Shown piece after piece: positions 5,958-54,798 of a stretch of 64,000 nucleotides of DNA. Under the pieces are notes generated by a model. The model was not told the DNA's origin. It did not search any database and saw nothing but the letters and a program-made list of their open reading frames with translations. This DNA is from Escherichia coli (GTDB lineage: Bacteria; Pseudomonadota; Gammaproteobacteria; Enterobacterales; Enterobacteriaceae), in assembly GCF_044647545.1 (NCBI RefSeq), contig NZ_CP172818.1; one strand, given 5' to 3'. The position numbers and the translations under genes are program-made. The first letter of the stretch is position 1, and every line of letters begins with the position of its first letter.

Positions 5958-6533
5958 TTACTTCTGCTGTACGCCTTCCACTGAAATAATCAGATCCACT
6001 TCCTGAGAAGCTGGACCTAAATCTGTTTTGATATTGAAGTCCTTGAGCTTAATTTTGCCTTCGGCCTCGAAGCCTGCACGTTTACCACCCCACGGGTCGT
6101 CGCCTTGACCAATTAATTTCGCTTCCAGCGTGACGGGTTTGGTTACGCCATTCAGCGTCAGATCGCCGGTAATATCCAATTCGTCACCGTCTTTCTTCAC
6201 GCTGGTGGAGGTGAATGTTGCCTGTGGATATTTTGCAGTATTGAGGAAATCTGCACTGCGAAGATGTTTATCGCGTTCGGCGTGATTAGTATCGACGCTG
6301 GTGGTGTTAATTGTCACATTCACTTTATCGGCAGCTGGATTTTTTTCATCAAAGGTAAAAGTACCGTCGAAATCTTTAAAGGTGCCATATAACCAGCTAT
6401 AGCCAAGATGCTGGATGCGGAAGTTAACAAAGGCGTGCTGACCTTCTTTGTCAATTTTGTAATCGGCGGCAACCGCTGAACCGGCAGAGAACATCAAGGA
6501 AGCGAAGGTTAAACCAAGCAGGCTTTTTTTCAT
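5958..6533 (-). CDS. yceI: Periplasmic polyisoprenoid-binding protein YceI
   Basis: 191-aa ORF with signal peptide (AVA-ADY); recognised as YceI. Confidence 0.94.
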
Positions 6534-6536
6534 TTT

Positions 6537-7103
6537 TTATACTCCATAGTCAGATGACGACTTTCCCAGCATGCGCTTCAGAGTGTCGTCTTTATCGATG
6601 AAATGATGCTTCAGGGCCATAAATCCGTGCATAACGGACAGTACTACGACGCTCCACGCGAGCCAAAAATGCAGGGCACCGGCAAAGTCAGCCTGTGCGC
6701 CAGCGTCGGCGAGGGTCGCGGGGACGTCAAACCAGCCAAAAACGCTGATCGGTTTACCATCGGCAGTTGAGATCAGATAGCCGCTGATGCCGATGGCGAA
6801 CAGCAATAGGTACAATGCGAGATGTCCAGCTTTTGCTGCAAGACGAGTTATGGGCGAATAACTCGGCAGCGGACCCGGCGGTGGAGATATGACACGCCAC
6901 AGAACGCGAATAACCAGTCCCATCATTAACAAAATACCGATGCTTTTATGCAGTTCGGGTGCTTTGTGATACCAGCCATCGTAATAACTGAGCGTGACCA
7001 TCCACAGACCTAAAGCAAACATGCCGTAGACAATAATTGCGCTTAGCCAATGGAAGGCCGCAGATATAACACCATAGCGTTCAGGGGTATTTGTGAATGA
7101 CAT
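6537..7103 (-). CDS. yceJ: Cytochrome b561 homolog YceJ
   Basis: Track ORF over-extended; ATG at 7103 gives 188 aa starting MSFTNTPERYG; 4 bp downstream of yceI (operon). Confidence 0.9.
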   Translation of the reverse strand: MSFTNTPERYGVISAAFHWLSAIIVYGMFALGLWMVTLSYYDGWYHKAPELHKSIGILLMMGLVIRVLWRVISPPPGPLPSYSPITRLAAKAGHLALYLLLFAIGISGYLISTADGKPISVFGWFDVPATLADAGAQADFAGALHFWLAWSVVVLSVMHGFMALKHHFIDKDDTLKRMLGKSSSDYGV

Positions 7104-13621: not shown

Positions 13622-14864
<1,243 letters not shown>

Positions 14865-14865
14865 A

Positions 14866-15789
14866 GTGAAAAAATTACGTATCGGCGTAGTGGGGTTAGG
14901 CGGCATCGCGCAAAAAGCGTGGTTACCGGTGCTGGCGGCAGCGTCTGACTGGACGTTACAAGGTGCGTGGTCGCCTACGCGCGCCAAAGCCCTGCCAATT
15001 TGTGACAGCTGGCGCATTCCTTATGCTGATTCGTTATCCAGCCTTGCCGCCAGTTGCGATGCGGTTTTTGTGCATTCCAGCACCGCCAGCCACTTTGACG
15101 TGGTCAGTACGTTACTCAATGCGGGGGTACATGTCTGTGTCGATAAACCGCTGGCAGAAAATCTGCGCGATGCTGAACGGCTGGTGGAACTGGCGGCGCG
15201 GAAAAAATTGACGTTGATGGTCGGTTTTAACCGTCGTTTCGCACCACTCTACGGTGAGTTAAAAACGCAACTCGCCACCGCAGCCTCGCTAAGAATGGAT
15301 AAACATCGTAGCAATAGCGTCGGGCCACACGATCTTTATTTCACGTTGCTGGATGATTATCTGCATGTGGTGGATACCGCGCTGTGGTTGTCGGGCGGTA
15401 AAGCCTCTCTGGATGGCGGTACGCTACTGACTAATGACGCTGGCGAAATGCTGTTTGCCGAGCACCATTTTTCGGCCGGTCCTTTGCAGATCACCACCTG
15501 TATGCATCGCCGTGCCGGAAGTCAGCGTGAAACCGTGCAGGCCGTGACTGACGGTGCGCTCATCGACATTACGGATATGCGCGAATGGCGTGAGGAGCGC
15601 GGGCAGGGCGTAGTGCATAAACCGATTCCTGGTTGGCAGAGTACGCTTGAGCAACGTGGATTTGTCGGCTGTGCGCGGCACTTCATTGAATGCGTGCAAA
15701 ATCAGACAGTTCCGCAAACCGCCGGCGAACAGGCAGTGCTGGCGCAACGTATCGTTGACAAGATCTGGCGCGATGCGATGAGTGAATAA
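14866..15789 (+). CDS. yceM: Gfo/Idh/MocA-family oxidoreductase YceM (MviM)
   Basis: Track ORF 14833.. over-extended into yceH; GTG at 14866, 5 nt after GGAGA, gives 307 aa VKKLRIGVVGLGGIAQ (Rossmann motif). Confidence 0.88.
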   Translation: MKKLRIGVVGLGGIAQKAWLPVLAAASDWTLQGAWSPTRAKALPICDSWRIPYADSLSSLAASCDAVFVHSSTASHFDVVSTLLNAGVHVCVDKPLAENLRDAERLVELAARKKLTLMVGFNRRFAPLYGELKTQLATAASLRMDKHRSNSVGPHDLYFTLLDDYLHVVDTALWLSGGKASLDGGTLLTNDAGEMLFAEHHFSAGPLQITTCMHRRAGSQRETVQAVTDGALIDITDMREWREERGQGVVHKPIPGWQSTLEQRGFVGCARHFIECVQNQTVPQTAGEQAVLAQRIVDKIWRDAMSE

Positions 15790-17473: not shown

Positions 17474-17890
17474 TCAGATCGAAATCTTTTTACTGCCGCG
17501 ATGGGTTGTTGAGGTCTGACCGTTCGCTCCATATAGCGTCGGTTCCTGATGCGGTTTCAACATTTCCAGCGCCTGTTGATTGCGCTCAATCTGTCCTTCC
17601 AGTAACCAGCCGTTATGTTGATTCATTTGGCGTAGTTGCTGCGTTTTCACAGTAATTTCCTGCCAGCGTTGACTAATATCAACGCTATTTGCTGAATTGG
17701 GTTCTTTCCTGCGTAACTGTTCGAGGTAATCCAGCGTCGCCAGCAGTGAGCTTTTTTGTTCTGTAATCCATTGCAACTGGCTGCCGTTGATCTGCCCCAT
17801 AGAGAGATGTTGCTGTTCTTGATCCATTACCGTTTTGAGATCGTTAAGCACAGCGGACATCTGGTCGAGGATCTCTGCAAGACGCGTCAT
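17474..17890 (-). CDS. flgN: Flagellar export chaperone FlgN
   Basis: 138-aa ORF, 4 nt downstream of flgM; recognised as FlgN. Confidence 0.95.
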   Translation of the reverse strand: MTRLAEILDQMSAVLNDLKTVMDQEQQHLSMGQINGSQLQWITEQKSSLLATLDYLEQLRRKEPNSANSVDISQRWQEITVKTQQLRQMNQHNGWLLEGQIERNQQALEMLKPHQEPTLYGANGQTSTTHRGSKKISI

Positions 17891-17894
17891 ACGA

Positions 17895-18188
17895 TCAGTT
17901 ACTCTGCAAGTCTTGCTGCGCTTCGTTGATCAGCGCATCGGCAATTTTGCCGGTGTCCATTTTTAGTTCACCGTTACGAATCGCCAGTTTTAACGCTTCG
18001 ACACGTTCAAGATTGATATCACTGCTGCCGGGTTGCATCAGTTTTGCTTGCGCGTCGCTTAACGTCACACTAGTGCTGGTGGAGGCGGTTGTTTTTGCCG
18101 CCCGGGTGTTCGTTACCGGCGCGTCAGTGGTTTCGCGCGGTTGAACGGTGCTTACGGGCTTCAGAGGCGAAGTGCGATCAATACTCAT
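17895..18188 (-). CDS. flgM: Anti-sigma-28 factor FlgM
   Basis: 97-aa ORF recognised as FlgM. Confidence 0.95.
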
Positions 18189-19077: not shown

Positions 19078-19494
19078 ATGCTCGATAAGCTCGACGCCGC
19101 CTTACGTTTTCAACAAGAGGCGCTCAATCTGCGCGCCCAGCGTCAGGAAGTGCTGGCAGCAAACATCGCCAATGCCGATACCCCTGGTTATCAGGCTCGC
19201 GATATCGATTTTGCCAGTGAACTTAAAAAAGTCATGCAACGTGGACGGGATGCAACCAGTGTGGTTGCTCTGACGATGACCTCAACGCAACACATTCCGG
19301 CGCAGGCGCTGACGCCTCCTACCGCAGAACTGCAATACCGTATTCCGGACCAGCCTTCGCTTGACGGTAATACCGTCGATATGGATCGCGAACGCACCCA
19401 GTTTGCCGATAACAGCCTGCAATACCAGATGAGCCTTAGCGCGTTGAGCGGGCAAATCAAAGGCATGATGAACGTTTTACAGAGCGGAAATTAA
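19078..19494 (+). CDS. flgB: Flagellar basal-body rod protein FlgB
   Basis: 138 aa; ATG 19078 after GGAGGAG RBS. Confidence 0.96.
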
Positions 19495-19497
19495 CGG

Positions 19498-19902
19498 ATG
19501 GCACTGCTGAATATTTTTGATATCGCCGGTTCGGCGTTAACTGCCCAGTCCCAGCGCCTGAACGTGGCGGCCAGTAATCTGGCGAATGCTGATAGCTTGA
19601 CCGGTCCCGATGGACAGCCATATCGGGCAAAACAGGTGGTATTTCAGGTTAACGCTGCGCCAGGTGCTGCGACAGGCGGCGTAAAGGTGGCCGATGTTAT
19701 AGAAAGTCAGGCCCCGGACAAACTGGTTTATGAACCGGGTAATCCGCTGGCGGATGCAAAGGGCTACGTGAAAATGCCAAACGTTGATGTCGTCGGAGAG
19801 ATGGTTAACACCATGTCGGCGTCACGCAGCTATCAGGCCAATGTTGAAGTGCTCAACACGGTGAAAAGCATGATGCTGAAAACCCTTACGCTCGGTCAAT
19901 AA
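19498..19902 (+). CDS. flgC: Flagellar basal-body rod protein FlgC
   Basis: 134 aa, 3 nt after flgB. Confidence 0.96.
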
Positions 19903-24295: not shown

Positions 24296-25393
24296 GTGAT
24301 TAAATTTCTCTCTGCATTAATTCTTCTACTGGTTACGACGGCGGTTCAGGCTGAGCGTATTCGCGATCTCACCAGTGTTCAGGGGGTAAGGCAAAACTCA
24401 CTGATTGGCTATGGCCTGGTGGTGGGGCTTGATGGTACAGGTGACCAGACAACTCAGACGCCGTTTACCACACAAACGCTTAATAACATGCTCTCACAGC
24501 TGGGAATTACCGTTCCGACGGGCACCAATATGCAGCTAAAAAACGTCGCTGCGGTAATGGTGACGGCGTCACTTCCACCGTTTGGACGCCAGGGGCAAAC
24601 CATTGACGTGGTGGTTTCTTCCATGGGAAATGCCAAAAGTCTGCGTGGCGGTACGTTATTGATGACACCGCTTAAGGGCGTTGACAGTCAGGTGTATGCG
24701 CTGGCACAGGGCAATATTCTGGTTGGCGGCGCAGGGGCCTCCGCTGGCGGTAGCAGTGTTCAGGTGAACCAACTGAACGGTGGACGGATCACCAATGGTG
24801 CGGTTATTGAACGTGAATTGCCCAGCCAGTTTGGCGTCGGGAATGCCCTTAATTTGCAACTTAACGACGAAGATTTCAGTATGGCGCAGCAAATCGCTGA
24901 CACCATCAACCGCGTGCGTGGATATGGCAGCGCCACCGCGTTAGATGCGCGGACTATTCAGGTGCGCGTACCGAGTGGCAACAGTTCCCAGGTCCGTTTC
25001 CTTGCCGATATCCAGAATATGCAGGTTAATGTTACCCCGCAGGACGCTAAAGTAGTGATTAACTCGCGCACTGGTTCGGTGGTGATGAATCGCGAAGTGA
25101 CCCTCGACAGCTGCGCGGTAGCGCAGGGGAATCTCTCAGTAACAGTTAATCGTCAGGCCAATGTCAGCCAGCCAGATACACCGTTTGGTGGCGGGCAGAC
25201 CGTGGTAACGCCACAAACGCAGATCGATTTACGCCAGAGCGGCGGTTCGCTGCAAAGCGTACGTTCCAGCGCCAGCCTCAATAACGTGGTGCGTGCGCTC
25301 AATGCGCTGGGCGCTACGCCGATGGATCTGATGTCCATACTGCAATCAATGCAAAGTGCGGGATGTCTGCGGGCAAAACTGGAAATCATCTGA
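24296..25393 (+). CDS. flgI: Flagellar P-ring protein FlgI
   Basis: GTG start at 24296 ([19 protein letters not shown] signal peptide); 365 aa; stop overlaps flgJ start (ATGA). Confidence 0.92.
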
Positions 25394-26334
25394 TGATCAG
25401 CGACAGCAAACTACTGGCAAGTGCGGCCTGGGATGCACAATCGCTCAACGAACTTAAGGCGAAAGCGGGCGAAGATCCGGCGGCAAATATCCGTCCGGTG
25501 GCCCGCCAGGTGGAAGGGATGTTCGTGCAGATGATGTTGAAAAGCATGCGCGACGCTTTACCAAAAGATGGCCTGTTCAGCAGCGAGCACACTCGCCTGT
25601 ATACCAGTATGTATGACCAGCAGATTGCCCAACAGATGACGGCGGGCAAAGGTCTGGGGCTGGCAGAGATGATGGTTAAACAGATGACGCCAGAACAACC
25701 ATTGCCAGAGGAGTCCACGCCAGCAGCACCGATGAAATTCCCGCTCGAAACCGTGGTGCGTTATCAAAATCAGACGCTTTCGCAGCTGGTGCAAAAGGCC
25801 GTACCACGTAACTACGATGATTCGCTGCCGGGTGACAGTAAAGCATTCCTCGCGCAACTCTCGTTGCCCGCCCAACTGGCAAGCCAGCAAAGCGGTGTGC
25901 CACATCATTTGATCCTCGCTCAGGCGGCGCTGGAATCTGGCTGGGGACAACGGCAAATCCGCCGTGAAAACGGCGAGCCGAGCTATAACCTGTTTGGCGT
26001 CAAAGCCTCTGGCAACTGGAAAGGGCCAGTCACTGAAATCACCACGACTGAATATGAAAATGGCGAAGCGAAGAAAGTAAAAGCGAAGTTTCGGGTCTAC
26101 AGCTCGTATCTGGAAGCATTGTCGGATTACGTTGGGCTGTTAACGCGTAACCCGCGCTACGCCGCCGTGACGACCGCCGCGAGTGCGGAGCAGGGGGCGC
26201 AGGCCCTACAGGACGCGGGCTATGCCACCGATCCTCACTATGCCCGCAAACTCACCAGCATGATTCAGCAGATGAAATCGATAAGCGACAAGGTGAGCAA
26301 AACCTACAGCATGAACATTGATAATCTGTTCTGA
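25393..26334 (+). CDS. flgJ: Flagellar rod assembly protein / peptidoglycan hydrolase FlgJ
   Basis: Track ORF 25363.. trimmed to ATG 25393 ([14 protein letters not shown]); 313 aa; C-terminal glucosaminidase domain. Confidence 0.94.
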   Translation: MISDSKLLASAAWDAQSLNELKAKAGEDPAANIRPVARQVEGMFVQMMLKSMRDALPKDGLFSSEHTRLYTSMYDQQIAQQMTAGKGLGLAEMMVKQMTPEQPLPEESTPAAPMKFPLETVVRYQNQTLSQLVQKAVPRNYDDSLPGDSKAFLAQLSLPAQLASQQSGVPHHLILAQAALESGWGQRQIRRENGEPSYNLFGVKASGNWKGPVTEITTTEYENGEAKKVKAKFRVYSSYLEALSDYVGLLTRNPRYAAVTTAASAEQGAQALQDAGYATDPHYARKLTSMIQQMKSISDKVSKTYSMNIDNLF

Positions 26335-42013: not shown

Positions 42014-42823
42014 ATGTTCTTAATTAACGGTCATAAGCAGGAATCGCTGGCAGTAAGCGATCGGGCAACGCAGTTTGGTGATGGTTGTTTTACCACCGCC
42101 AGAGTTATCGACGGTAAAGTCAGTTTGTTATCGGCGCATATCCAGCGACTACAGGATGCTTGTCAGCGGTTGATGATTTCCTGTGACTTCTGGCCTCAGC
42201 TTGAACTAGAGATGAAAACGCTGGCAGCAGAACAGCAAAATGGTGTGCTGAAAGTGGTGATCAGTCGCGGTAGTGGCGGGCGAGGATACAGCACATTGAA
42301 CAGCGGACCGGCAACGCGGATTCTCTCCGTTACGGTTTATCCCGCACATTACGACCGTTTGCGTAACGAGGGGATGACGTTGGCGCTAAGCCCGGTGCGG
42401 CTGGGGCGCAATCCTCATCTTGCAGGTATTAAACATCTTAATCGGCTTGAGCAAGTATTGATCCGCTCTCATCTTGAGCAGACAAACGCTGATGAGGCGC
42501 TGGTCCTTGACAGCGAAGGGTGGGTTACGGAATGCTGTGCGGCTAATTTGTTCTGGCGGAAGGGCAACGTAGTTTATACGCCGCGACTGGATCAGGCAGG
42601 TGTTAACGGCATTATGCGACAATTCTGTATCCGTTTACTGGCACAATCCTCTTATCAGCTTGTCGAAGTGCAAGCCTCGCTGGAGGAGGCGTTGCAGGCA
42701 GATGAGATGGTTATTTGTAATGCGTTAATGCCAGTGATGCCCGTACGTGCCTGTGGCGATGTCTCCTTTTCGTCAGCAACGTTATATGAATATTTAGCCC
42801 CACTTTGTGAGCGCCCGAATTAG
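42014..42823 (+). CDS. pabC: Aminodeoxychorismate lyase PabC
   Basis: 269 aa. Confidence 0.95.
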
Positions 42824-42825
42824 TC

Positions 42826-43848
42826 ATGAAAAAAGTGTTATTGATTATCTTGTTATTGCTGGTGGTACTGGGTATCGCCGCTGGTGTGGGCGTCTGGAAG
42901 GTTCGCCATCTTGCCGACAGCAAATTGCTTATCAAAGAAGAGACGATATTTACCCTGAAGCCAGGGACCGGACGTCTGGCGCTAGGTGAACAGCTTTATG
43001 CCGATAAGATCATCAATCGCCCACGGGTTTTTCAATGGCTGCTGCGTATCGAACCGGATCTTTCTCACTTTAAAGCCGGGACTTACCGCTTTACACCGCA
43101 GATGACCGTGCGCGAGATGCTGAAATTGCTGGAAAGCGGTAAAGAAGCACAGTTCCCTCTGCGACTGGTAGAAGGGATGCGTCTGAGCGATTACCTCAAG
43201 CAATTGCGTGAGGCCCCGTATATCAAGCATACGCTGAGCGACGATAAGTACGCCACCGTAGCGCAGGCACTTGAACTGGAAAACCCAGAGTGGATTGAAG
43301 GTTGGTTCTGGCCAGACACCTGGATGTATACCGCCAATACCACCGATGTCGCGTTACTCAAGCGAGCGCACAAGAAAATGGTGAAAGCGGTCGATAGCGC
43401 CTGGGAAGGGCGTGCGGACGGTCTGCCCTATAAAGATAAAAACCAGCTGGTGACGATGGCATCAATTATCGAAAAAGAAACCGCCGTTGCCAGTGAACGC
43501 GATCAGGTTGCCTCGGTATTTATCAACCGGTTACGCATTGGTATGCGCCTGCAGACCGACCCGACCGTGATTTACGGGATGGGAGAGCGTTATAATGGCA
43601 AACTTTCTCGTGCAGACCTGGAAACGCCGACAGCGTATAACACCTATACCATTACCGGTTTGCCGCCAGGTGCAATAGCTACGCCGGGGGCGGATTCGCT
43701 GAAGGCTGCTGCGCATCCGGCAAAAACGCCGTATCTCTATTTTGTGGCCGATGGTAAAGGTGGTCACACGTTTAATACCAATCTTGCCAGTCATAACAAG
43801 TCTGTGCAGGATTATCTGAAAGTGCTTAAGGAAAAAAATGCGCAGTAA
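42826..43848 (+). CDS. mltG: Endolytic murein transglycosylase MltG (YceG)
   Basis: 340 aa, single N-terminal TM helix; start 3 nt after pabC stop. Confidence 0.95.
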
Positions 43849-44479
43849 GTATATCGTCATTGAGGGGCTGGAAGGCGCAGGCAAAACTACCGCGCGTAAC
43901 GTGGTGGTTGAGACGCTCGAGCAACTGGGTATCCGCGACATGGTTTTCACTCGGGAACCTGGCGGTACGCAACTTGCCGAAAAGTTAAGAAGCCTGGTGC
44001 TGGATATCAAATCGGTAGGCGATGAAGTCATTACCGATAAAGCCGAAGTTCTGATGTTTTATGCCGCGCGCGTTCAACTGGTAGAAACGGTCATCAAACC
44101 AGCGCTGGCTAACGGCACTTGGGTGATTGGCGATCGCCACGATCTCTCCACTCAGGCGTATCAGGGCGGCGGACGTGGTATTGACCAACATATGCTGGCA
44201 ACATTGCGTGATGCTGTTCTCGGGGATTTTCGCCCCGACTTAACGCTCTATCTCGATGTTACCCCGGAAGTTGGCTTAAAACGTGCGCGTGCTCGCGGCG
44301 AGCTGGATCGTATTGAGCAAGAGTCTTTCGATTTCTTTAATCGCACCCGCGCCCGCTATCTGGAACTGGCAGCACAAGATAAAAGCATTCATACCATTGA
44401 TGCCACCCAGCCGCTGGAGTCCGTGATGGATGCAATCCGCACTACCGTGACCAATTGGGTGAAGGAGTTGGACGCATGA
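43838..44479 (+). CDS. tmk: Thymidylate kinase Tmk
   Basis: 213 aa; P-loop GLEGAGKTT; overlaps mltG 3' end by 11 nt. Confidence 0.96.
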
Positions 44480-45480
44480 GATGGTATCCATGGTTACGAC
44501 CTGATTTCGAAAAACTGGTAGCCAGCTATCAGGCCGGAAGAGGTCACCATGCGCTACTCATTCAGGCGTTACCGGGTATGGGCGAGGATGCTTTAATCTA
44601 CGCCCTGAGCCGTTATTTACTCTGCCAACAACCGCAGGGCCACAAAAGTTGCGGTCACTGTCGTGGATGTCAGTTGATGCAGGCTGGTACGCATCCCGAT
44701 TATTACACCCTGGCTCCCGAGAAAGGGAAAAATGCGCTGGGCATTGATGCGGTACGTGAAGTCACCGAAAAGTTAAATGAGCACGCACGTTTAGGTGGTG
44801 CGAAAGTTGTCTGGGTAACCGATGCTGCCTTACTGACCGACGCCGCGGCTAACGCATTGCTGAAAACGCTTGAAGAGCCACCAGCAGAAACCTGGTTTTT
44901 CCTGGCTACCCGCGAGCCTGAACGTTTACTGGCAACATTACGTAGTCGTTGTCGGTTACATTACCTTGCGCCGCCGCCGGAACAGTACGCCGTGACCTGG
45001 CTTTCACGCGAAGTGACAATGTCACAGGATGCATTACTTGCCGCATTGCGCTTAAGCGCCGGTTCGCCTGGCGCGGCACTGGCGTTGTTTCAGGGAGATA
45101 ACTGGCAGGCTCGTGAAACATTGTGTCAGGCGTTGGCATATAGCGTGCCATCGGGCGACTGGTATTCGCTGCTAGCGGCCCTTAATCATGAACAAGCTCC
45201 GGCGCGTTTACACTGGCTGGCAACGTTGCTGATGGATGCGCTAAAACGCCATCATGGCGCTGCGCAGGTGACCAATGTTGATGTGCCGGGCCTGGTCGTC
45301 GAACTGGCAAACCATCTATCTCCCTCGCGCCTGCAGGCTATACTGGGGGATGTTTGCCACATTCGTGAACAGTTAATGTCTGTCACAGGTATTAACCGCG
45401 AGCTTCTCATCACCGATCTTTTACTGCGTATTGAGCATTACCTGCAACCGGGCGTTGTGCTACCGGTTCCTCATCTTTAA
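44476..45480 (+). CDS. holB: DNA polymerase III delta-prime subunit HolB
   Basis: Track ORF trimmed to ATG 44476 ([14 protein letters not shown]); 334 aa; ATGA overlap with tmk stop. Confidence 0.95.
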
Positions 45481-45490
45481 GAGAGACATC

Positions 45491-46288
45491 ATGTTTTTAG
45501 TCGACTCACACTGCCATCTCGATGGTCTGGATTATGAATCTTTGCATAAGGACGTGGATGACGTTCTGGCGAAAGCCGCCGCACGCGATGTGAAATTTTG
45601 TCTGGCAGTCGCCACAACATTACCTGGTTATTTACACATGCGGGATCTGGTAGGCGAACGCGACAACGTCGTATTTTCTTGTGGCGTGCATCCACTCAAC
45701 CAGAATGATCCCTACGATGTAGAAGATTTACGTCGTCTGGCGGCAGAAGAGGGCGTTGTAGCGCTGGGTGAAACCGGGCTGGATTATTATTACACGCCTG
45801 AAACTAAAGTACGTCAGCAAGAGTCCTTCATCCATCATATCCAGATTGGTCGTGAACTGAACAAGCCGGTTATCGTCCACACCCGTGACGCCCGCGCCGA
45901 TACGCTGGCAATTCTGCGCGAAGAAAAAGTGACGGATTGCGGTGGCGTACTACACTGTTTTACAGAGGACAGAGAAACGGCGGGTAAATTACTGGATCTC
46001 GGATTTTACATCTCCTTTTCCGGCATTGTGACCTTCCGTAATGCGGAGCAACTGCGCGATGCTGCGCGTTATGTCCCCCTGGATCGGTTACTGGTGGAAA
46101 CTGACTCACCTTACCTTGCGCCGGTACCGCATCGAGGAAAAGAGAATCAACCTGCGATGGTTCGTGACGTTGCAGAATACATGGCTGTGTTGAAAGGTGT
46201 TGCCGTTGAAGAACTGGCGCAGGTAACCACCGATAACTTCGCCCGTCTGTTTCACATCGACGCTTCCCGCCTTCAATCCATCCGTTGA
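45491..46288 (+). CDS. ycfH: TatD-family metal-dependent deoxyribonuclease YcfH
   Basis: Track ORF trimmed to ATG 45491 ([11 protein letters not shown]); 265 aa. Confidence 0.94.
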
Positions 46289-46462
46289 ATGAGTTTTTTT
46301 AAAGCTCGTAATTAATGGCTAAAACGAGTAAAGTTCACCGCCGAAAATTGGGCGGTGAATAACCACGTTTGAAATATTGTGACATATGTTTTGTCAAAAT
46401 GTGCAACTTCTCCAATGATCTGAAGTTGAAACGTGATAGCCGTCAAACAAATCGGCACTGAA

Positions 46463-46488
46463 TTATTTTACTCTGTGTAATAAATAAA
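46463..46488 (+). promoter_or_regulatory. Mlc operator in the ptsG promoter
   Basis: Palindromic TTATTTTACTCTGTGTAATAAATAAA about 95 nt upstream of ptsG start; matches the Mlc box as I recall it. Confidence 0.7.
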
Positions 46489-46582
46489 GGGCGCTTAGAT
46501 GCCCTGTACACGGCGAGGCTCTCCCCCCTTGCCACGCGTGAGAACGTAAAAAAAGCACCCATACTCAGGAGCACTCTCAATT

Positions 46583-48016
46583 ATGTTTAAGAATGCATTT
46601 GCTAACCTGCAAAAGGTCGGTAAATCGCTGATGCTGCCGGTATCCGTACTGCCTATCGCAGGTATTCTGCTGGGCGTCGGTTCCGCGAATTTCAGCTGGC
46701 TGCCCGCCGTTGTATCGCATGTTATGGCAGAAGCAGGCGGTTCCGTCTTTGCAAACATGCCACTGATTTTTGCGATCGGTGTCGCCCTCGGCTTTACCAA
46801 TAACGATGGCGTATCCGCGCTGGCCGCAGTTGTTGCCTATGGCATCATGGTTAAAACCATGGCCGTGGTTGCGCCACTGGTACTGCATTTACCTGCTGAA
46901 GAAATCGCCTCTAAACACCTGGCGGATACTGGCGTACTCGGAGGGATTATCTCCGGTGCGATTGCAGCGTATATGTTTAACCGTTTCTACCGTATTAAGC
47001 TGCCTGAGTATCTTGGCTTCTTTGCCGGTAAACGCTTTGTGCCGATCATTTCTGGCCTGGCTGCCATCTTTACTGGCGTTGTGCTGTCCTTCATTTGGCC
47101 GCCGATTGGTTCTGCAATCCAGACCTTCTCTCAGTGGGCTGCTTACCAGAACCCGGTAGTTGCGTTTGGCATTTACGGTTTCATCGAACGTTGCCTGGTA
47201 CCGTTTGGTCTGCACCACATCTGGAACGTACCTTTCCAGATGCAAATTGGTGAATACACTAACGCAGCAGGTCAGGTTTTCCACGGCGACATTCCGCGTT
47301 ATATGGCGGGTGACCCGACTGCGGGTAAACTGTCTGGTGGCTTCCTGTTCAAAATGTACGGTCTGCCAGCTGCCGCAATTGCTATCTGGCACTCTGCTAA
47401 ACCAGAAAACCGCGCGAAAGTGGGCGGTATTATGATCTCCGCGGCGCTGACCTCGTTCCTGACCGGTATCACCGAGCCGATCGAGTTCTCCTTCATGTTC
47501 GTTGCGCCGATCCTGTACATCATCCACGCGATTCTGGCAGGCCTGGCATTCCCAATCTGTATTCTTTTGGGGATGCGTGACGGTACGTCGTTCTCGCACG
47601 GTCTGATCGACTTCATCGTTCTGTCTGGTAACAGCAGCAAACTGTGGCTGTTCCCGATCGTCGGTATCGGTTATGCGATTGTTTACTACACCATCTTCCG
47701 CGTGCTGATTAAAGCACTGGATCTGAAAACGCCGGGTCGTGAAGATGCGACTGAAGATGCAAAAGCGACAGGTACCAGCGAAATGGCACCGGCTCTGGTT
47801 GCTGCATTTGGTGGTAAAGAAAACATTACTAACCTCGACGCATGTATTACCCGTCTGCGCGTCAGCGTTGCTGATGTGTCTAAAGTGGATCAGGCTGGCC
47901 TGAAGAAACTGGGCGCAGCGGGCGTAGTGGTTGCTGGTTCTGGTGTTCAGGCGATTTTCGGTACTAAATCCGATAACCTGAAAACCGAGATGGATGAGTA
48001 CATCCGTAACCACTAA
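46583..48016 (+). CDS. ptsG: PTS glucose-specific EIICB component PtsG
   Basis: 477 aa; EIIB phosphorylation motif [10 protein letters not shown] near C-terminus. Confidence 0.97.
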
Positions 48017-48038
48017 TCCGTAAGACGTTGGGGAGACT

Positions 48039-48064
48039 AAGGCAGCCAGATGGCTGCCTTTTTT
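48039..48064 (+). terminator. Rho-independent terminator after ptsG (convergent with fhuE)
   Basis: Hairpin aaggcagcca-ga-tggctgcctt followed by T6. Confidence 0.8.
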
Positions 48065-48075
48065 ACAGGTGTTAT

Positions 48076-50265
48076 TCAGAATTGATACGTGCCGGTAATG
48101 CTGAAATTACGCGGTGCGCCGTAGACGATAGAACCTTCCACGTTGGTATCGTAGGTTTTGTCGAACAGGTTATTGACGTTCCCCTGTAACGAGAAGTTTT
48201 TCGTCACCTGGTAGCGGGTGAAGAGATCCACCAGCGCGTAGCTACCTTGCTCGGCGCGGAAGGTGCCATACGGTGTCACGGTGTCGGTATACACGCGATT
48301 TTGCCAGTTAACACCACCGCCGACCGTCAACTCTGGCATGACAGGCAACCGATAGCTGGTGAACATTTTAACCGTGGAGCGTGGCAGATTAGGATTAACG
48401 GCGTTTCCTTCGTTATCTTCTGCAATATAGCGTGTTGCGCCAAACGTCAGCTGCCAGTTGTCGGTAATTGCGCCGTTGAGTTCAAATTCCACACCTTTAC
48501 TGACTGTCCCATCCACCGCTTTATAGGCGGTTTCGCCGTTGCTGCCGGGGATAGGTGTACCGGTGGACTGAGCTACATTATCCTGCTCAATACGGAAGAT
48601 GGCTAACGTGGTGGTCAGACGGCTATTCATCCAGTCCGATTTCAGACCCAGCTCGTAGTTGTTACCGGTGATTGGAGCCAGATATTTGCCTGAACTGTCA
48701 CGATCATTTTGCGGCTGGAAAATAGAGGTATAGCTGGCGTAGGTCGACCAGTTGTCATTGATGTCAAACACCAGACCAGCATAAGGCGTGGTGTGGTTTT
48801 TCTCCATGCTGTAAGTCAGCGTATCAACCCGCCAGTTGGTATAACGAGCGCCGAGGATCAGATGCAGCGGATCGGCAAGGGTGACACGAGTGGCAGCATA
48901 TAACGATTTCATATGTGTGGTATCGTCCTGCGCCAGGCTCTGTGGTGACCAGTCGGTTTGTGGGAAATTGCCATTAAAGTTGTAGAAACTGCCAATTTCA
49001 TCCGGGAAGATGTTGGCCCATGAACTGATGTAACGATTGTTTTGTTTGCTGTAACTGCCACCAAACATTAGATTGTGCTGACGACCAAACAATTCATAAC
49101 TACCGTCAGCAAACAAATCCAGCGCATCAACTTTACGTTTGCCGCTGTTCCAACCGGTGCCGCCGACATAATCAAAACCAGGTCCATAATTACTGTATGG
49201 CCCAACCAGCATACCATCCGCTTTGTTTACATAGGCATCGACATACATCATTTTACTGTCAAATTCGACTTCGGAGTGGGTGGCATTCAGTGTCGCTTGC
49301 CAGGTATCAGCAAACCGCTGCTTGAGGGTCATAAAGACCTTGTTGATCTCTTTATCGTTATACGCCCAGTCAGGTGCGGTACTGCGTGCGCGATCGTAAC
49401 TGTTGCTGCTGCCATCAGTATTCCAGCGCGGTAAACCGCCCCAGGTTGGGCTATTAACATCAATGCGCTGATATTCGTAACCGGCTGAAAGCATCGTAAG
49501 ATCGCCTAAATCAGCATCGACAATGCCGGAGAAGAAGGTCTTTTCACTGTTGTAGCGGTCCAGCCATGAGTCGTTATTCTGGTAGCCGCCGACAATTCGT
49601 GCGCGGATTTTACCATCTTCGGTGAGTGGGCTTTGTAAATCCGCCACATACCGTTCTTTGTTCCAGCTACCGTATTCCGCCGAGACATCGCCTTTAAATT
49701 CACGACTGGTCGCGTGTTTTCGAACCATATTAATTGCCGCAGATGGATTACCCGTCCCGGTCATGAGGCCTGTCGCGCCACGCACTACTTCTACGCGTTC
49801 AAACAGTGCCATATCAGAAAGTGCGTCGCCCAGATTCCAGCGCGATTCAAAATAGGTGGGGATACCATCAACCATATAGTTATCGATCTGGAATCCGCGG
49901 GAATAATAAAGAGCACGATCGGAATCCGCCTGACTTTTGCTGATCCCCAGCGTGTTTTCCATCACTTCGCCCAGCGTTTGTAACTGCTGATCTTCCATCC
50001 GCTGCTGGCTAACAATAGTGACCGACTGAGGAATATCACGTTGAGTCATCTGCATTTTTGTACCCGCAGAGGTAGACGTTACGTTGTAATCATTTTCGCC
50101 ATCATCTGGGGCTGTGGCTGAACCCTCAACAATCACCGTTTCTTCAGTGACTGGTGCAGCAAAAGCGGCGGAAGGTAATAGTGCCAGTGCTATGCAACCG
50201 GCAAGGAGTGACGGTTTGATGATAGCTTGATGTTGATTATCCCTGTTAAATTGTGTCGAAAGCAT
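48076..50265 (-). CDS. fhuE: TonB-dependent ferric coprogen/rhodotorulic acid receptor FhuE
   Basis: 729 aa; signal peptide, TonB box, terminal aromatic (..TYQF). Confidence 0.96.
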   Translation of the reverse strand: MLSTQFNRDNQHQAIIKPSLLAGCIALALLPSAAFAAPVTEETVIVEGSATAPDDGENDYNVTSTSAGTKMQMTQRDIPQSVTIVSQQRMEDQQLQTLGEVMENTLGISKSQADSDRALYYSRGFQIDNYMVDGIPTYFESRWNLGDALSDMALFERVEVVRGATGLMTGTGNPSAAINMVRKHATSREFKGDVSAEYGSWNKERYVADLQSPLTEDGKIRARIVGGYQNNDSWLDRYNSEKTFFSGIVDADLGDLTMLSAGYEYQRIDVNSPTWGGLPRWNTDGSSNSYDRARSTAPDWAYNDKEINKVFMTLKQRFADTWQATLNATHSEVEFDSKMMYVDAYVNKADGMLVGPYSNYGPGFDYVGGTGWNSGKRKVDALDLFADGSYELFGRQHNLMFGGSYSKQNNRYISSWANIFPDEIGSFYNFNGNFPQTDWSPQSLAQDDTTHMKSLYAATRVTLADPLHLILGARYTNWRVDTLTYSMEKNHTTPYAGLVFDINDNWSTYASYTSIFQPQNDRDSSGKYLAPITGNNYELGLKSDWMNSRLTTTLAIFRIEQDNVAQSTGTPIPGSNGETAYKAVDGTVSKGVEFELNGAITDNWQLTFGATRYIAEDNEGNAVNPNLPRSTVKMFTSYRLPVMPELTVGGGVNWQNRVYTDTVTPYGTFRAEQGSYALVDLFTRYQVTKNFSLQGNVNNLFDKTYDTNVEGSIVYGAPRNFSITGTYQF

Positions 50266-50339
50266 TTGAAATCTCTTGGTTTATGTTGGCGTCAGGCTCA
50301 TGCCGGAGCAGGGTGATGAGCGGTTATATTTAGTGTGCG

Positions 50340-50390
50340 AATAATTTTGTATGTAAATGCAAATGAGAAATATACGCATTCATATTTAGT
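50340..50390 (-). promoter_or_regulatory. Putative Fur-regulated promoter region of fhuE
   Basis: AT-rich stretch upstream of fhuE with several ATGNAA-type hexamers; no clean 19-bp Fur box consensus; inferred from the known iron regulation of fhuE. Confidence 0.3.
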
Positions 50391-50598
50391 GTGTAAACCA
50401 AACAGAGAATGTCTTTTCAGCGCATTCGCAGGCAGAAATGGGAATAATGGCGATATATACGGCAGCAAAACGATTTTTTGCTTAAGAAATCGTGAGTTAA
50501 GGTTGAAAGAGCAGGTTTAACTCGACCATACTCTATACTCGCAGTGTGGCGCGGCGTAGCATGGCGCAACGCATGGCTATTTGAAAAAGGAAAATGTC

Positions 50599-50958
50599 GT
50601 GGCAGAAGAAACTATATTCAGCAAAATTATTCGTCGTGAGATCCCCTCCGATATCGTCTACCAGGATGATCTGGTAACGGCGTTTCGCGATATTTCGCCG
50701 CAAGCGCCAACGCATATTCTGATCATTCCGAATATCCTCATTCCGACTGTGAACGACGTGTCTGCTGAGCATGAGCAGGCGCTGGGACGCATGATCACCG
50801 TAGCGGCAAAAATTGCTGAGCAAGAAGGTATTGCCGAAGATGGCTATCGTCTGATCATGAACACCAACCGCCACGGCGGACAAGAGGTTTACCACATCCA
50901 TATGCACTTGTTGGGTGGCCGTCCGCTGGGACCAATGCTGGCGCATAAAGGTCTGTAA
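50599..50958 (+). CDS. hinT: HIT-family purine nucleoside phosphoramidase HinT
   Basis: GTG start 50599 after AAGGAAAA; 119 aa; HIT motif HIHMHLLGG. Confidence 0.92.
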
Positions 50959-50960
50959 CG

Positions 50961-51338
50961 ATGAGAAAAGGATGCTTTGGGCTGGTGTCTCTGGCGTTGT
51001 TAGTGCTGGTGGGCTGTCGTACACATCCGGAAATTCCGGTGAATGATGAGCAATCGCTGGTGATGGAGTCATCTTTATTGGCTGCGGGCATCAGTGCAGA
51101 AAAGCCCGTCCTTTCGACGTCTGATATTCAACCTTCAGCATCCTCAACGCTTTATAACGAAAGGCAAGAACCCGTTACCGTTCATTATCGTTTTTACTGG
51201 TATGACGCCAGAGGGCTGGAGATGCATCCTCTGGAAAGGCCACGCAGCGTTACCATTCCCGCACATTCGGCGGTCACGCTGTACGGCAGCGCCAATTTTC
51301 TGGGGGCGCACAAAGTCAGACTTTATCTATATTTGTAA
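50961..51338 (+). CDS. ycfL: Lipoprotein YcfL
   Basis: 125 aa; lipobox LVGC. Confidence 0.92.
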   Translation: MRKGCFGLVSLALLVLVGCRTHPEIPVNDEQSLVMESSLLAAGISAEKPVLSTSDIQPSASSTLYNERQEPVTVHYRFYWYDARGLEMHPLERPRSVTIPAHSAVTLYGSANFLGAHKVRLYLYL

Positions 51339-51351
51339 GGGGTGAATCTTG

Positions 51352-51973
51352 ATGACAAAAATGAGTCGCTACGCCTTGATTACCGCGCTGGCGATGTTTC
51401 TCGCCGGGTGTGTGGGGCAACGTGAACCTGCGCCGGTAGAAGAAGTGAAACCAGCGCCGGAACAACCAGCCGAGCCGCAACAGCCTGTCCCCACAGTGCC
51501 ATCGGTGCCGACGATACCGCAGCAGCCAGGCCCAATTGAGCACGAAGATCAAACTGCACCGCCTGCGCCGCATATTCGCCATTATGACTGGAATGGCGCA
51601 ATGCAGCCGATGGTCAGTAAGATGCTTGGGGCTGATGGCGTGACTGCGGGTAGCGTCCTGCTGGTTGATAGCGTTAACAACCGTACTAACGGTTCGCTGA
51701 ATGCCGCAGAAGCGACCGAAACGCTGCGAAATGCGCTGGCTAATAACGGTAAATTTACCCTGGTTTCCGCCCAGCAGCTGTCGATGGCGAAGCAACAGTT
51801 AGGTTTGTCGCCGCAGGACAGTTTAGGTACCCGTAGTAAAGCCATAGGCATTGCCCGCAATGTCGGCGCTCATTACGTGCTGTACTCCAGCGCCTCTGGC
51901 AACGTTAACGCTCCGACCCTACAAATGCAGCTGATGCTGGTGCAGACGGGCGAAATTATCTGGTCAGGTAAAG

Positions 51974-51993
<20 letters not shown>
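51352..51993 (+). CDS. lpoB: PBP1b activator lipoprotein LpoB (YcfM)
   Basis: ATG 51352 ([20 protein letters not shown]); 213 aa; Pro-rich linker. Confidence 0.93.
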
Positions 51994-53834
<1,841 letters not shown>

Positions 53835-53856
53835 CCCTGGCTTATGTGAGGAAGCG

Positions 53857-54399
53857 ATGATTATCTATTTGCACGGTTTTGACTCTAACAGTCCGGGTAA
53901 CCACGAGAAAGTCTTACAATTGCAGTTTATTGACCCGGATGTACGGCTAATAAGCTACAGTACGCGGCATCCGAAACATGATATGCAGCATCTGCTCAAA
54001 GAAGTGGACAAAATGTTGCAACTGAACGTCGACGAGCGTCCGCTGATTTGCGGCGTTGGTCTGGGCGGATACTGGGCGGAACGGATTGGTTTTCTTTGCG
54101 ATATCCGCCAGGTGATCTTCAACCCTAATTTGTTCCCTTATGAGAACATGGAAGGCAAGATTGATCGCCCGGAAGAGTATGCCGATATTGCCACTAAGTG
54201 TGTGACCAACTTCCGCGAAAAGAATCGCGATCGTTGCCTGGTGATTTTGTCGCGTAATGATGAAGCGCTTAACAGCCAGCGGACATCTGAAGAGTTGCAT
54301 CATTATTACGAGATTGTCTGGGACGAAGAGCAGACGCACAAATTCAAGAATATCTCCCCGCATTTACAGCGCATTAAAGCGTTCAAAACCCTCGGGTAA
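53857..54399 (+). CDS. ycfP: UPF0227 esterase-like protein YcfP
   Basis: Track ORF trimmed to ATG 53857 ([13 protein letters not shown]); 180 aa. Confidence 0.92.
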
Positions 54400-54401
54400 A
54401 T

Positions 54402-54530
54402 GCCCTCGTCGCATCAGGTAACCTTGCCGGTACCTGATGCGCTCCGGATTCTGTGGGTCGGAAAAGGCGTTCACGCCGCATCCGACAGTCGAGCATCAAT
54501 GCCTGATGCGCTTCTTATCAGGACTACCAA
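54402..54530. repeat. REP/BIME cluster downstream of ycfP
   Basis: Several gcatcaggt / cctgatgcg and ggcgttcacgccgcatcc palindromic units. Confidence 0.7.
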
Positions 54531-54798
54531 ACGCCCTCCATACACACCTCACTCTATATCATTCTCACAAATCAGCTCAAATAATAAACAACAAACTCTG
54601 TTTTTTGATCTCACCCGGTAAAGTCGCCTATCTTTTCAGCAACAAAACTTGATTAACATCAATTTTGGTATGACCAATGCACCATTCATGTTATTCTCAT
54701 TAGCGAAGAACATTTTCATTGCTGTAACCTGTTGTTAATTAAGAGCTATGCCAATAACCATTAATTAACAATTGGTTAATAAATTTAAGGGGGTCACG

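Follow-up and report, generated by a model that had tools for sequence, protein, structure and literature searches.

It is textbook knowledge that adjacent genes can overlap by a few nucleotides and that such overlaps are linked to coupled translation. Here, we discuss five compact junctions, mltG/tmk, tmk/holB, lpoB/thiK, flgI/flgJ and yceH/yceM, in a stretch of 64,000 nucleotides of Escherichia (E.) coli DNA (NCBI RefSeq assembly GCF_044647545.1, contig NZ_CP172818.1), referred to below as the window. The overlaps are part of every E. coli annotation, and an earlier note, made from the sequence alone, had grouped all five as junctions typical of operons with coupled translation. The analysis described below on balance favors a picture in which these junctions do not all work alike, i.e., partial coupling assisted by a Shine-Dalgarno (SD) motif at three of them, mainly SD-directed initiation at tmk, and a step-down in expression at lpoB/thiK.

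Five compact junctions and their start codons

Gene coordinates are those of the RefSeq coding sequences of strain FDAARGOS_497, which were mapped to the window via exact matches of their ends; all 64 of the 64 mapped coding sequences, including those listed here, are intact open reading frames. A constant coordinate offset between the window and FDAARGOS_497 was ruled out, because the flgL-rne spacer differs. Junction sizes were read directly from the window sequence, where negative numbers denote overlaps and positive numbers denote spacer nucleotides (nt). The five junctions and the genes that define them are:

42826-43848, plus strand: mltG (yceG) coding sequence, the last 11 nt of which are shared with tmk
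43838-43848, plus strand: mltG/tmk overlap of 11 nt (ATGCGCAGTAA)
43838-44479, plus strand: tmk coding sequence, 213 amino acids (aa), with the same length and N-terminus as PDB 4TMK
44476-44479, plus strand: tmk/holB overlap of 4 nt (ATGA)
44476-45480, plus strand: holB coding sequence, 334 aa, matching PDB 1A5T over residues 1-334
51352-51993, plus strand: lpoB coding sequence, the last 20 nt of which are shared with thiK
51974-51993, plus strand: lpoB/thiK overlap of 20 nt
51974-52798, plus strand: thiK coding sequence with a GTG start, 274 aa
24296-25393, plus strand: flgI coding sequence
25393, plus strand: flgI/flgJ overlap of 1 nt (TGATG)
25393-26334, plus strand: flgJ coding sequence
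14217-14864, plus strand: yceH coding sequence
14865, plus strand: single spacer base between the yceH TAA and the yceM GTG
14866-15789, plus strand: yceM coding sequence with a GTG start

The direct reading bears out the overlaps at mltG/tmk, tmk/holB and lpoB/thiK, as well as the one-nucleotide gap at yceH/yceM, where the yceH TAA ends at 14864 and the yceM GTG begins at 14866. The flgI/flgJ junction, which had been described as ATGA, reads ...ATC TGATG ATC... and is thus a 1-nt TGATG overlap. The interval 43838-52000, presented as the home of all five junctions, holds three of them, with flgI/flgJ and yceH/yceM lying outside. Several complete E. coli chromosomes carry this interval at 100% identity, and 5425 of 5426 genomes contain it.

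Revised start-codon assignments, which the note had named as a change that would erase the overlaps, are not called for: structures, homologous codons, the SD scan and N-terminal motifs support the annotated downstream starts, and the overlaps stand. Tmk and the delta-prime subunit encoded by holB were both solved with the annotated N-termini and lengths (213 aa in 4TMK and 334 aa in 1A5T). For tmk, there is no in-frame start upstream and the next one, at +63, lacks an SD; 4TMK supports the annotated start, and the P-loop GLEGAGKT, which begins at residue 10, leaves no room for a later one. The single alternative for holB is an upstream TTG without an SD, and 1A5T supports the annotated start. 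For ThiK or a relative no solved structure is available. Here, alternatives are a TTG 39 nt downstream without an SD and a GTG 141 nt downstream, but evidence from the homologous codon favors the annotated start: this codon is GTG, ATG or TTG depending on the genus, and such interchange at one codon is the signature of a real start. Later starts are also precluded by the YceM Rossmann motif GVVGLGG, which begins at residue 7, and by the FlgJ N-terminus, MISDSKLL. The SD of yceM is GGGAGA (dG -7.3).

All five pairs are co-directional and belong to known or apparent operons, i.e., both genes reside on the same strand and on one transcript; a scan of the window for promoters and terminators yielded sites no more numerous than in shuffled sequences. 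That compact junctions are typical of operons, as the earlier note had it, agrees with the literature (PMC6728339, PMC10666635, PMC12548453). The window is not richer in tight junctions than the genome background. Among its 48 same-strand adjacent pairs, 4 overlap and 8 (17%) are found at spacings of -8 to +6, to be compared with 707 of 2987 unidirectional pairs (24%) in E. coli, where -4 is the commonest spacing, followed by -1 and -8 (Huber et al. 2023, PMC10666635), and with a share of overlapping co-directional pairs near 15% in most prokaryotic groups (PMC6728339). Equally tight same-strand junctions beyond the five are found at pabC/mltG (+2), hinT/ycfL (+2, 50958-50961), yceJ/yceI (+3, 6533-6537), flgB/flgC (+3, 19494-19498) and flgM/flgN (+4, 17890-17895).

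Coupling is efficient at spacings of -4 to +3 and drops faster with a growing overlap than with a growing gap (Brown & Wade 2025, PMC12548453); at an overlap of -25 it is absent, according to Tian & Salis as summarized in PMC12548453. Spacings at tmk/holB, flgI/flgJ and yceH/yceM (-4, -1 and +1) fall within the efficient range, while those at mltG/tmk and lpoB/thiK fall outside it. Because coupling efficiency falls so steeply with overlap length, grouping the -11 and -20 overlaps with ATGA is unjustified. The claim of coupled translation is reasonable for tmk/holB, flgI/flgJ and yceH/yceM, given the geometry described in the literature. For mltG/tmk it goes too far, and for lpoB/thiK it is probably incorrect.

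Conserved spacing at mltG/tmk and tmk/holB

Conservation was surveyed in species-representative genomes, where ptsG served as an anchor with 10-kb flanks, yielding 80 Enterobacterales loci that range from Escherichia to Yersinia, Erwinia, Dickeya and Edwardsiella. The survey covers mltG/tmk, tmk/holB, lpoB/thiK and the neighboring junctions around ptsG. Orthologues were identified using tblastn, and the start codon nearest to the aligned N-terminus was used. A motif was considered SD-like at dG <= -4.4 kcal/mol in positions -18 to -4; in control windows placed inside the upstream genes such motifs are found in 6-17% of cases. In the window, the starts of tmk and holB are preceded by:

43828-43832, plus strand: SD-like AAGGA of tmk within the C-terminal mltG codons (LKEK), dG -6.1, predicted to be open
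44462-44467, plus strand: SD of holB, AAGGAG, inside tmk, dG -8.3, spacer 7

The mltG/tmk spacing is -11 in 73 of 75 loci, the remaining two being -14 and -8. The tmk start is ATG in all loci and the mltG stop is TAA in 74 of 75. Codon 3 of tmk is AGT in 71 of 76 loci, even though other Ser codons exist, which indicates that the mltG TAA stop is kept in place. An SD-like motif is found 5' of tmk in 93% of 76 loci (16% of control windows). The tmk ribosome-binding site (RBS) is A-rich and predicted to be open, with an opening energy at the 20th percentile of the 64 genes in the window.

Label-free proteomics of strain BW25113 gave steady-state numbers of 71 copies per cell for MltG, 133 for Tmk, 36 for HolB and 125 for YcfH (Zhao et al. 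2019, PMC6544118). Because re-initiation cannot yield more Tmk than MltG, these numbers suggest that tmk is initiated largely on its own, and coupling from mltG cannot be the sole source of Tmk. Translation of tmk would then occur mainly through SD-directed initiation at the strong, conserved and structurally open SD in the last mltG codons, with ribosomes arriving from mltG supplying at most part of the initiation events, considering that Tmk is the more abundant protein. The translation efficiencies of Burkhardt 2017 are 0.92 for tmk and 1.31 for ycfH, the only two of these genes for which values are given.

An SD-like motif precedes the upstream gene, mltG, in only 8% of loci, and 92% of the 74 Enterobacterales loci show no recognizable SD there; within the operon, dependence on upstream translation or on SD-independent initiation may be greatest for mltG. 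At the pabC/mltG junction (42823-42826) the mltG start is found 2 nt past the pabC stop, and the spacing ranges from -176 to +142 across species, with -4 in 15 loci.

At tmk/holB the spacing is -4 in 45 loci, -1 in 28, +7 in 2 and 259 in 1, i.e., -4 or -1 in 73 of 76. The C-terminus of Tmk around the junction diverges across species while this spacing holds; what is kept is the GGAG motif, the contact between stop and start, and the N-terminus of HolB. An SD-like motif is found 5' of holB in 78% of 76 loci (11% of control windows). The restricted spacing combined with a conserved SD fits coupling. Dickeya (loci L063 and L064) is the only surveyed lineage in which tmk and holB are apart (+7 nt, TGAatcgctgATG).

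Genome engineering has touched this junction twice. Recoding of holB codon 2 (AGA) to CGU, which destroys the tmk stop, failed, while a 3-nt stop inserted ahead of the holB ATG succeeded (Napolitano et al., 10.1101/069385). The tolerated insertion indicates that the exact ATGA is dispensable, provided that stop and start remain adjacent. In P. putida the tmk/holB overlap was treated as a predicted coupling architecture and rebuilt as TGATG (PMC10653934).

Several junctions next to those discussed here drift across the surveyed loci: in addition to pabC/mltG, the spacing varies from +5 to +84 at holB/ycfH, from -13 to +76 at thiK/nagZ and from +2 to +305 at nagZ/ycfP. The conservation of mltG/tmk, tmk/holB and lpoB/thiK beside such drifting neighbors indicates that these three junctions are old and are held in place.

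The lpoB/thiK overlap and a hairpin past the lpoB stop

The lpoB/thiK overlap spans 14-35 nt in 53 of 55 loci, with -20 in 28, -23 in 13 and -17 in 10 of them. An SD-like motif is found 5' of thiK in 53% of the 55 loci and in 6% of control windows. The elements that surround the junction in the window are:

51966-51969, plus strand: weak SD-like AGGT of thiK within lpoB codons (WSGKG), dG -4.9
52003-52024, plus strand: RNA hairpin with an 8-bp stem and a 6-nt loop, identified from the terminator scan, covariation and synonymous constraint
52025-52029, plus strand: TTTTT tract directly 3' of the hairpin, from the terminator scan

Termination by Rho requires ribosome-free RNA. Inside thiK, a Rho termination region was found in which transcript coverage drops from 182 to 51 in untreated cells, as compared to 96 to 85 with bicyclomycin (Adams et al. 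2021, PMC7815308), with a Rho score of 3.2 and p 1e-7 (Supplementary file 2 of the same study). Together with Rho's requirement, this region suggests that few ribosomes translate thiK, contrary to what efficient coupling to a well-expressed lpoB would produce. The numbers of LpoB and NagZ in BW25113 are 339 and 50 copies per cell, respectively, while ThiK was not quantified (Zhao et al. 2019, PMC6544118). The Rho region implies polarity between lpoB and nagZ. Efficient coupling at lpoB/thiK is thus unlikely; the weak GTG start, the conserved hairpin discussed below and the Rho region point to attenuation rather than coupling.

The hairpin lies 9 nt past the lpoB stop, within thiK codons 10-17. 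Its predicted stability is -12.2 kcal/mol in the window (z -2.5) and -15 kcal/mol in reference-like E. coli (z -3.9). In this strain thiK codon 17 (52021-52023) encodes Cys (TGC) instead of Arg (CGC) in reference E. coli; the change resides in the 3' arm of the hairpin and replaces a G-C pair by a G-U wobble, such that pairing is kept.

In 17 sequences from Escherichia, Enterobacter, Raoultella and Kosakonia (clade A), 96.6% of the cells of the alignment in this stem are paired, as compared to 13-52% in slid controls. Three of seven pairs are changed on both sides (e.g., U-A in 9 sequences and C-G in 7), through synonymous changes in Arg/Ser and Asp/Leu codons, and the covariation score was reached by 0 of 500 shuffles. 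In 34 sequences from Citrobacter, Cedecea, Serratia, Yersinia, Erwinia, Pantoea, Rahnella, Dickeya and others (clade B), a different hairpin, CCGGCGGY-N4-RCCGCCGG, is found at other codons. It is located 34 nt past the lpoB stop in 30 of the 34 sequences, 91.9% of its cells are paired, and its closing pair covaries (C-G 16, U-A 12, A-U 1); in Pantoea, Erwinia or Serratia it reads CCGGCGG...CCGCCGG-TTCTTTTTTT. At least five T are found in the first 8 nt after the stem in 27 of 34 clade-B and 8 of 17 clade-A sequences, as compared to 7% of background 8-mers.

Among 50 window starts past the lpoB stop the best hairpin has a median stability of -17.4 kcal/mol. In 31 of 54 loci this hairpin ranks among the top 5% of background blocks, and in 16 it is the most stable one of the lpoB-to-nagZ stretch, while control hairpins past the tmk and mltG stops do not rise above background (median ranks 0.45 and 0.51). 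At four four-fold-degenerate codons in the hairpin arms the frequency of the major third-position allele is 1.0, 1.0, 1.0 and 0.92; for conserved codons of this type in lpoB, thiK and nagZ the median is 0.52 and 6% reach 0.9. This constraint indicates that selection acts on the nucleotide sequence of the hairpin. With compensatory changes in its pairs and a conservation that exceeds the needs of the protein, the hairpin qualifies as a conserved structured RNA, and the G+C-rich stem-loop directly before a U-tract has the sequence features of an intrinsic terminator. A search of 50300-54600 against Rfam revealed no family at the hairpin; its single hit, below threshold, is the naRNA4 match past ycfP described further below.

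The hairpin can be compared to three known types of element. Like an intrinsic terminator or intra-operon attenuator, it has a G+C-rich stem of 7-9 bp, a short loop (often GNRA-like in clade B) and a T-rich tail. Unlike such terminators, it is found within the thiK coding sequence, its T-tract is interrupted in many species, and no end at this site was reported from Term-seq of K-12. The ribosome termination structure (RTS; Chemla et al. 2020, PMC7518266) is a stable structure right after a stop codon that insulates against re-initiation. The clade-A hairpin likewise begins 6-9 nt past the lpoB stop, approximately at the leading edge of a terminating ribosome, but that of clade B lies 34 nt downstream and the competing start is found upstream of the stop, a case that this work does not appear to cover. 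As in the 3' protective hairpins of Dar & Sorek 2018, which delimit stable segments of operon mRNAs or the mature 3' ends of Rho-terminated transcripts, a stable hairpin lies just past a more highly expressed upstream gene, lpoB, with a Rho region further downstream, in thiK; in contrast to these, the hinT operon is not among the 47 differentially decaying ones and no 3' end was mapped at the hairpin. A role as 3' stabilizer or efficient terminator in E. coli K-12 finds no support in the tables of Dar & Sorek 2018 and Adams 2021.

The hairpin could act as a partial terminator that is sensitive to translation (its likeness to a terminator is greatest in clade B), as an insulator behind the lpoB stop, or as a 3' protector of Rho-terminated transcripts. 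A tentative proposal, which we regard as possible but not probable, is that the lpoB/thiK overlap constitutes one half of a conserved intra-operon control point, the other half being the hairpin, which acts as a translation-sensitive attenuator or insulator and has been rebuilt at different codons in the two clades. Being located within the first 30 codons of thiK, the hairpin would form unless a ribosome translates thiK, and the weak GTG start would control whether transcription, or intact mRNA, extends into thiK-nagZ-ycfP, with Rho termination inside thiK as a backup to the hairpin in E. coli. We consider the hairpin a modest new lead.

Coupling, its alternatives and the surrounding sequence

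The known class to which these junctions are best compared comprises short co-directional overlaps of the form NTGA (-4) or TGATG/TAATG (-1), with translation coupled by termination-reinitiation (Huber et al. 2019, 2023; Brown & Wade 2025). The canonical spacing of this class is found at tmk/holB, flgI/flgJ and yceH/yceM, and the SD inside the upstream gene, the operon setting and the -4/-1 toggling of tmk/holB are also shared. In contrast to the class, the products are not subunits of one complex (Tmk is no clamp-loader subunit), their levels are unequal and the likeness here is one of geometry; mltG/tmk and lpoB/thiK are beyond the efficient range.

From the above discussion, the picture outlined at the beginning of this text, with different modes at different junctions, appears somewhat more plausible than its alternatives taken together. 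At tmk/holB, flgI/flgJ and yceH/yceM the stop/start geometry is one that allows a terminating ribosome to re-initiate efficiently, and each downstream start has its own SD inside the upstream gene; partial, SD-assisted coupling is what we infer as most likely for these pairs. At lpoB/thiK the conserved overlap would arise from a weak GTG start combined with a weak SD, with the hairpin just past the lpoB stop. Together with Rho termination inside thiK, it would define a step-down point that keeps expression of thiK-nagZ-ycfP below that of lpoB, rather than a coupling device.

A number of observations weigh against this interpretation. No published direct coupling experiments were found for the five pairs. 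The argument from Tmk exceeding MltG is soft, since the copy numbers are steady-state values and the one for MltG, a membrane protein, is based on 2 peptides. The Rho region at MG1655 position 1163767 converts to about 500 nt into thiK, near 52480 in the window, but the Rho score is computed over +/-800 nt, which locates termination within thiK only roughly. Adams et al. 2021 list no Term-seq 3' end at MG1655 11632xx-11634xx or under lpoB, in data that cover K-12 under three conditions and a weakly expressed operon, and the hinT operon, which was analyzed by Dar & Sorek (S2), is absent from their differential-decay table S3. Furthermore, conservation of an overlap can reflect entrapment by dual coding rather than selection for expression control.

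The last point leads to a rather unlikely alternative, in which the overlaps are neutral by-products of compaction and of the drift of stops and starts, each gene is translated independently, from an SD of its own, and dual-coding entrapment keeps the geometry. Conserved SD motifs 5' of tmk, holB and thiK would be expected in that case, as would the protein outputs of neighboring genes, which are far from 1:1, the lack of enrichment of tight junctions in the window, and the drift of the lpoB/thiK overlap between -14 and -35 with shifts of the lpoB stop. The exact tmk/holB ATGA can also be altered without loss of viability, and the bioBF pair provides a precedent for an uncoupled ATGA. Entrapment by itself, however, hardly explains that tmk/holB toggles between two coupling-competent forms in 73 of 76 loci despite the diverging C-terminus of Tmk, that AGT at tmk codon 3 preserves the mltG TAA when other Ser codons could be used, or that neighboring, nonoverlapping junctions drift freely.

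The view that all five junctions serve coupling, with downstream translation largely dependent on ribosomes that finish the upstream gene, is improbable. It is consistent with the co-directional arrangement in operons, with the conservation across Enterobacterales of the junctions in the interval 43838-52000, and with the outcome for native E. coli ATGA pairs, of which 4 of 5 tested were coupled (PMC6728339; none is among the present five pairs). The remaining tested pair, bioBF, was uncoupled. The loss of coupling with longer overlaps makes the -11 and especially the -20 junction poor candidates, Tmk outnumbers MltG about twofold, and LpoB is far above the unquantified ThiK. The Rho termination inside thiK, which needs ribosome-free RNA, and the conserved SD of every downstream gene except mltG also speak against general dependence on upstream ribosomes. 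Even less probable is a model in which the holB RBS is locked in a structure opened only by ribosomes that translate tmk: its predicted opening energy is 17.7 kcal/mol, at the 95th percentile of the 64 genes in the window, and the local minimum free energy is -16.3 kcal/mol, but the folds do not exceed dinucleotide shuffles in stability (z -0.9 and -1.4) and change with window size, and RNAalifold on 36 Enterobacterales sequences yielded 0 consensus pairs, such that the model is unsupported after the shuffle controls and the cross-species consensus fold.

Two additional sites in the window are of interest in their own right. The flgL-rne spacer at 29215-29795 contains about 580 bp of abnormal sequence with homopolymer runs (C8, T>20, A15, G16) and a G+C content down to 0.18, which stands in place of the central part of a GNAT-toxin/DUF1778-antitoxin gene pair; FDAARGOS_497 carries this pair intact. 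Its flanks align perfectly and substitutions become denser toward the center. No complete E. coli genome covers at least 80% of a 1,051-nt query (28900-29950) that spans the tract, which looks like a sequencing, assembly or data artifact rather than biology. Next to it, at 29088-29215 on the minus strand, is the 3' end of the GNAT-family acetyltransferase toxin gene, truncated by the tract; the gene belongs to a type II toxin-antitoxin pair, with a 4-nt overlap in FDAARGOS_497 (locus L001, 5153-5937). In the ycfP-ndh spacer, 54456-54524 matches Rfam naRNA4 (RF02564) below threshold on both strands (45.5 and 40.7 bits; gathering threshold 59.5) and is probably a repetitive extragenic palindromic (REP)-type element.

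For the annotation of this region, the analysis corrects flgI/flgJ to TGATG rather than ATGA, and it calls for caution in that overlap length matters, i.e., junctions at -11 and -20 are not to be read like ATGA. The mltG/tmk/holB geometry is fixed across Enterobacterales, which is relevant to genome recoding and to the polarity of CRISPR interference (CRISPRi) at two essential genes. The hairpin in the 5' end of thiK may explain why the peptidoglycan-related genes lpoB and nagZ are expressed at unequal levels within one operon.

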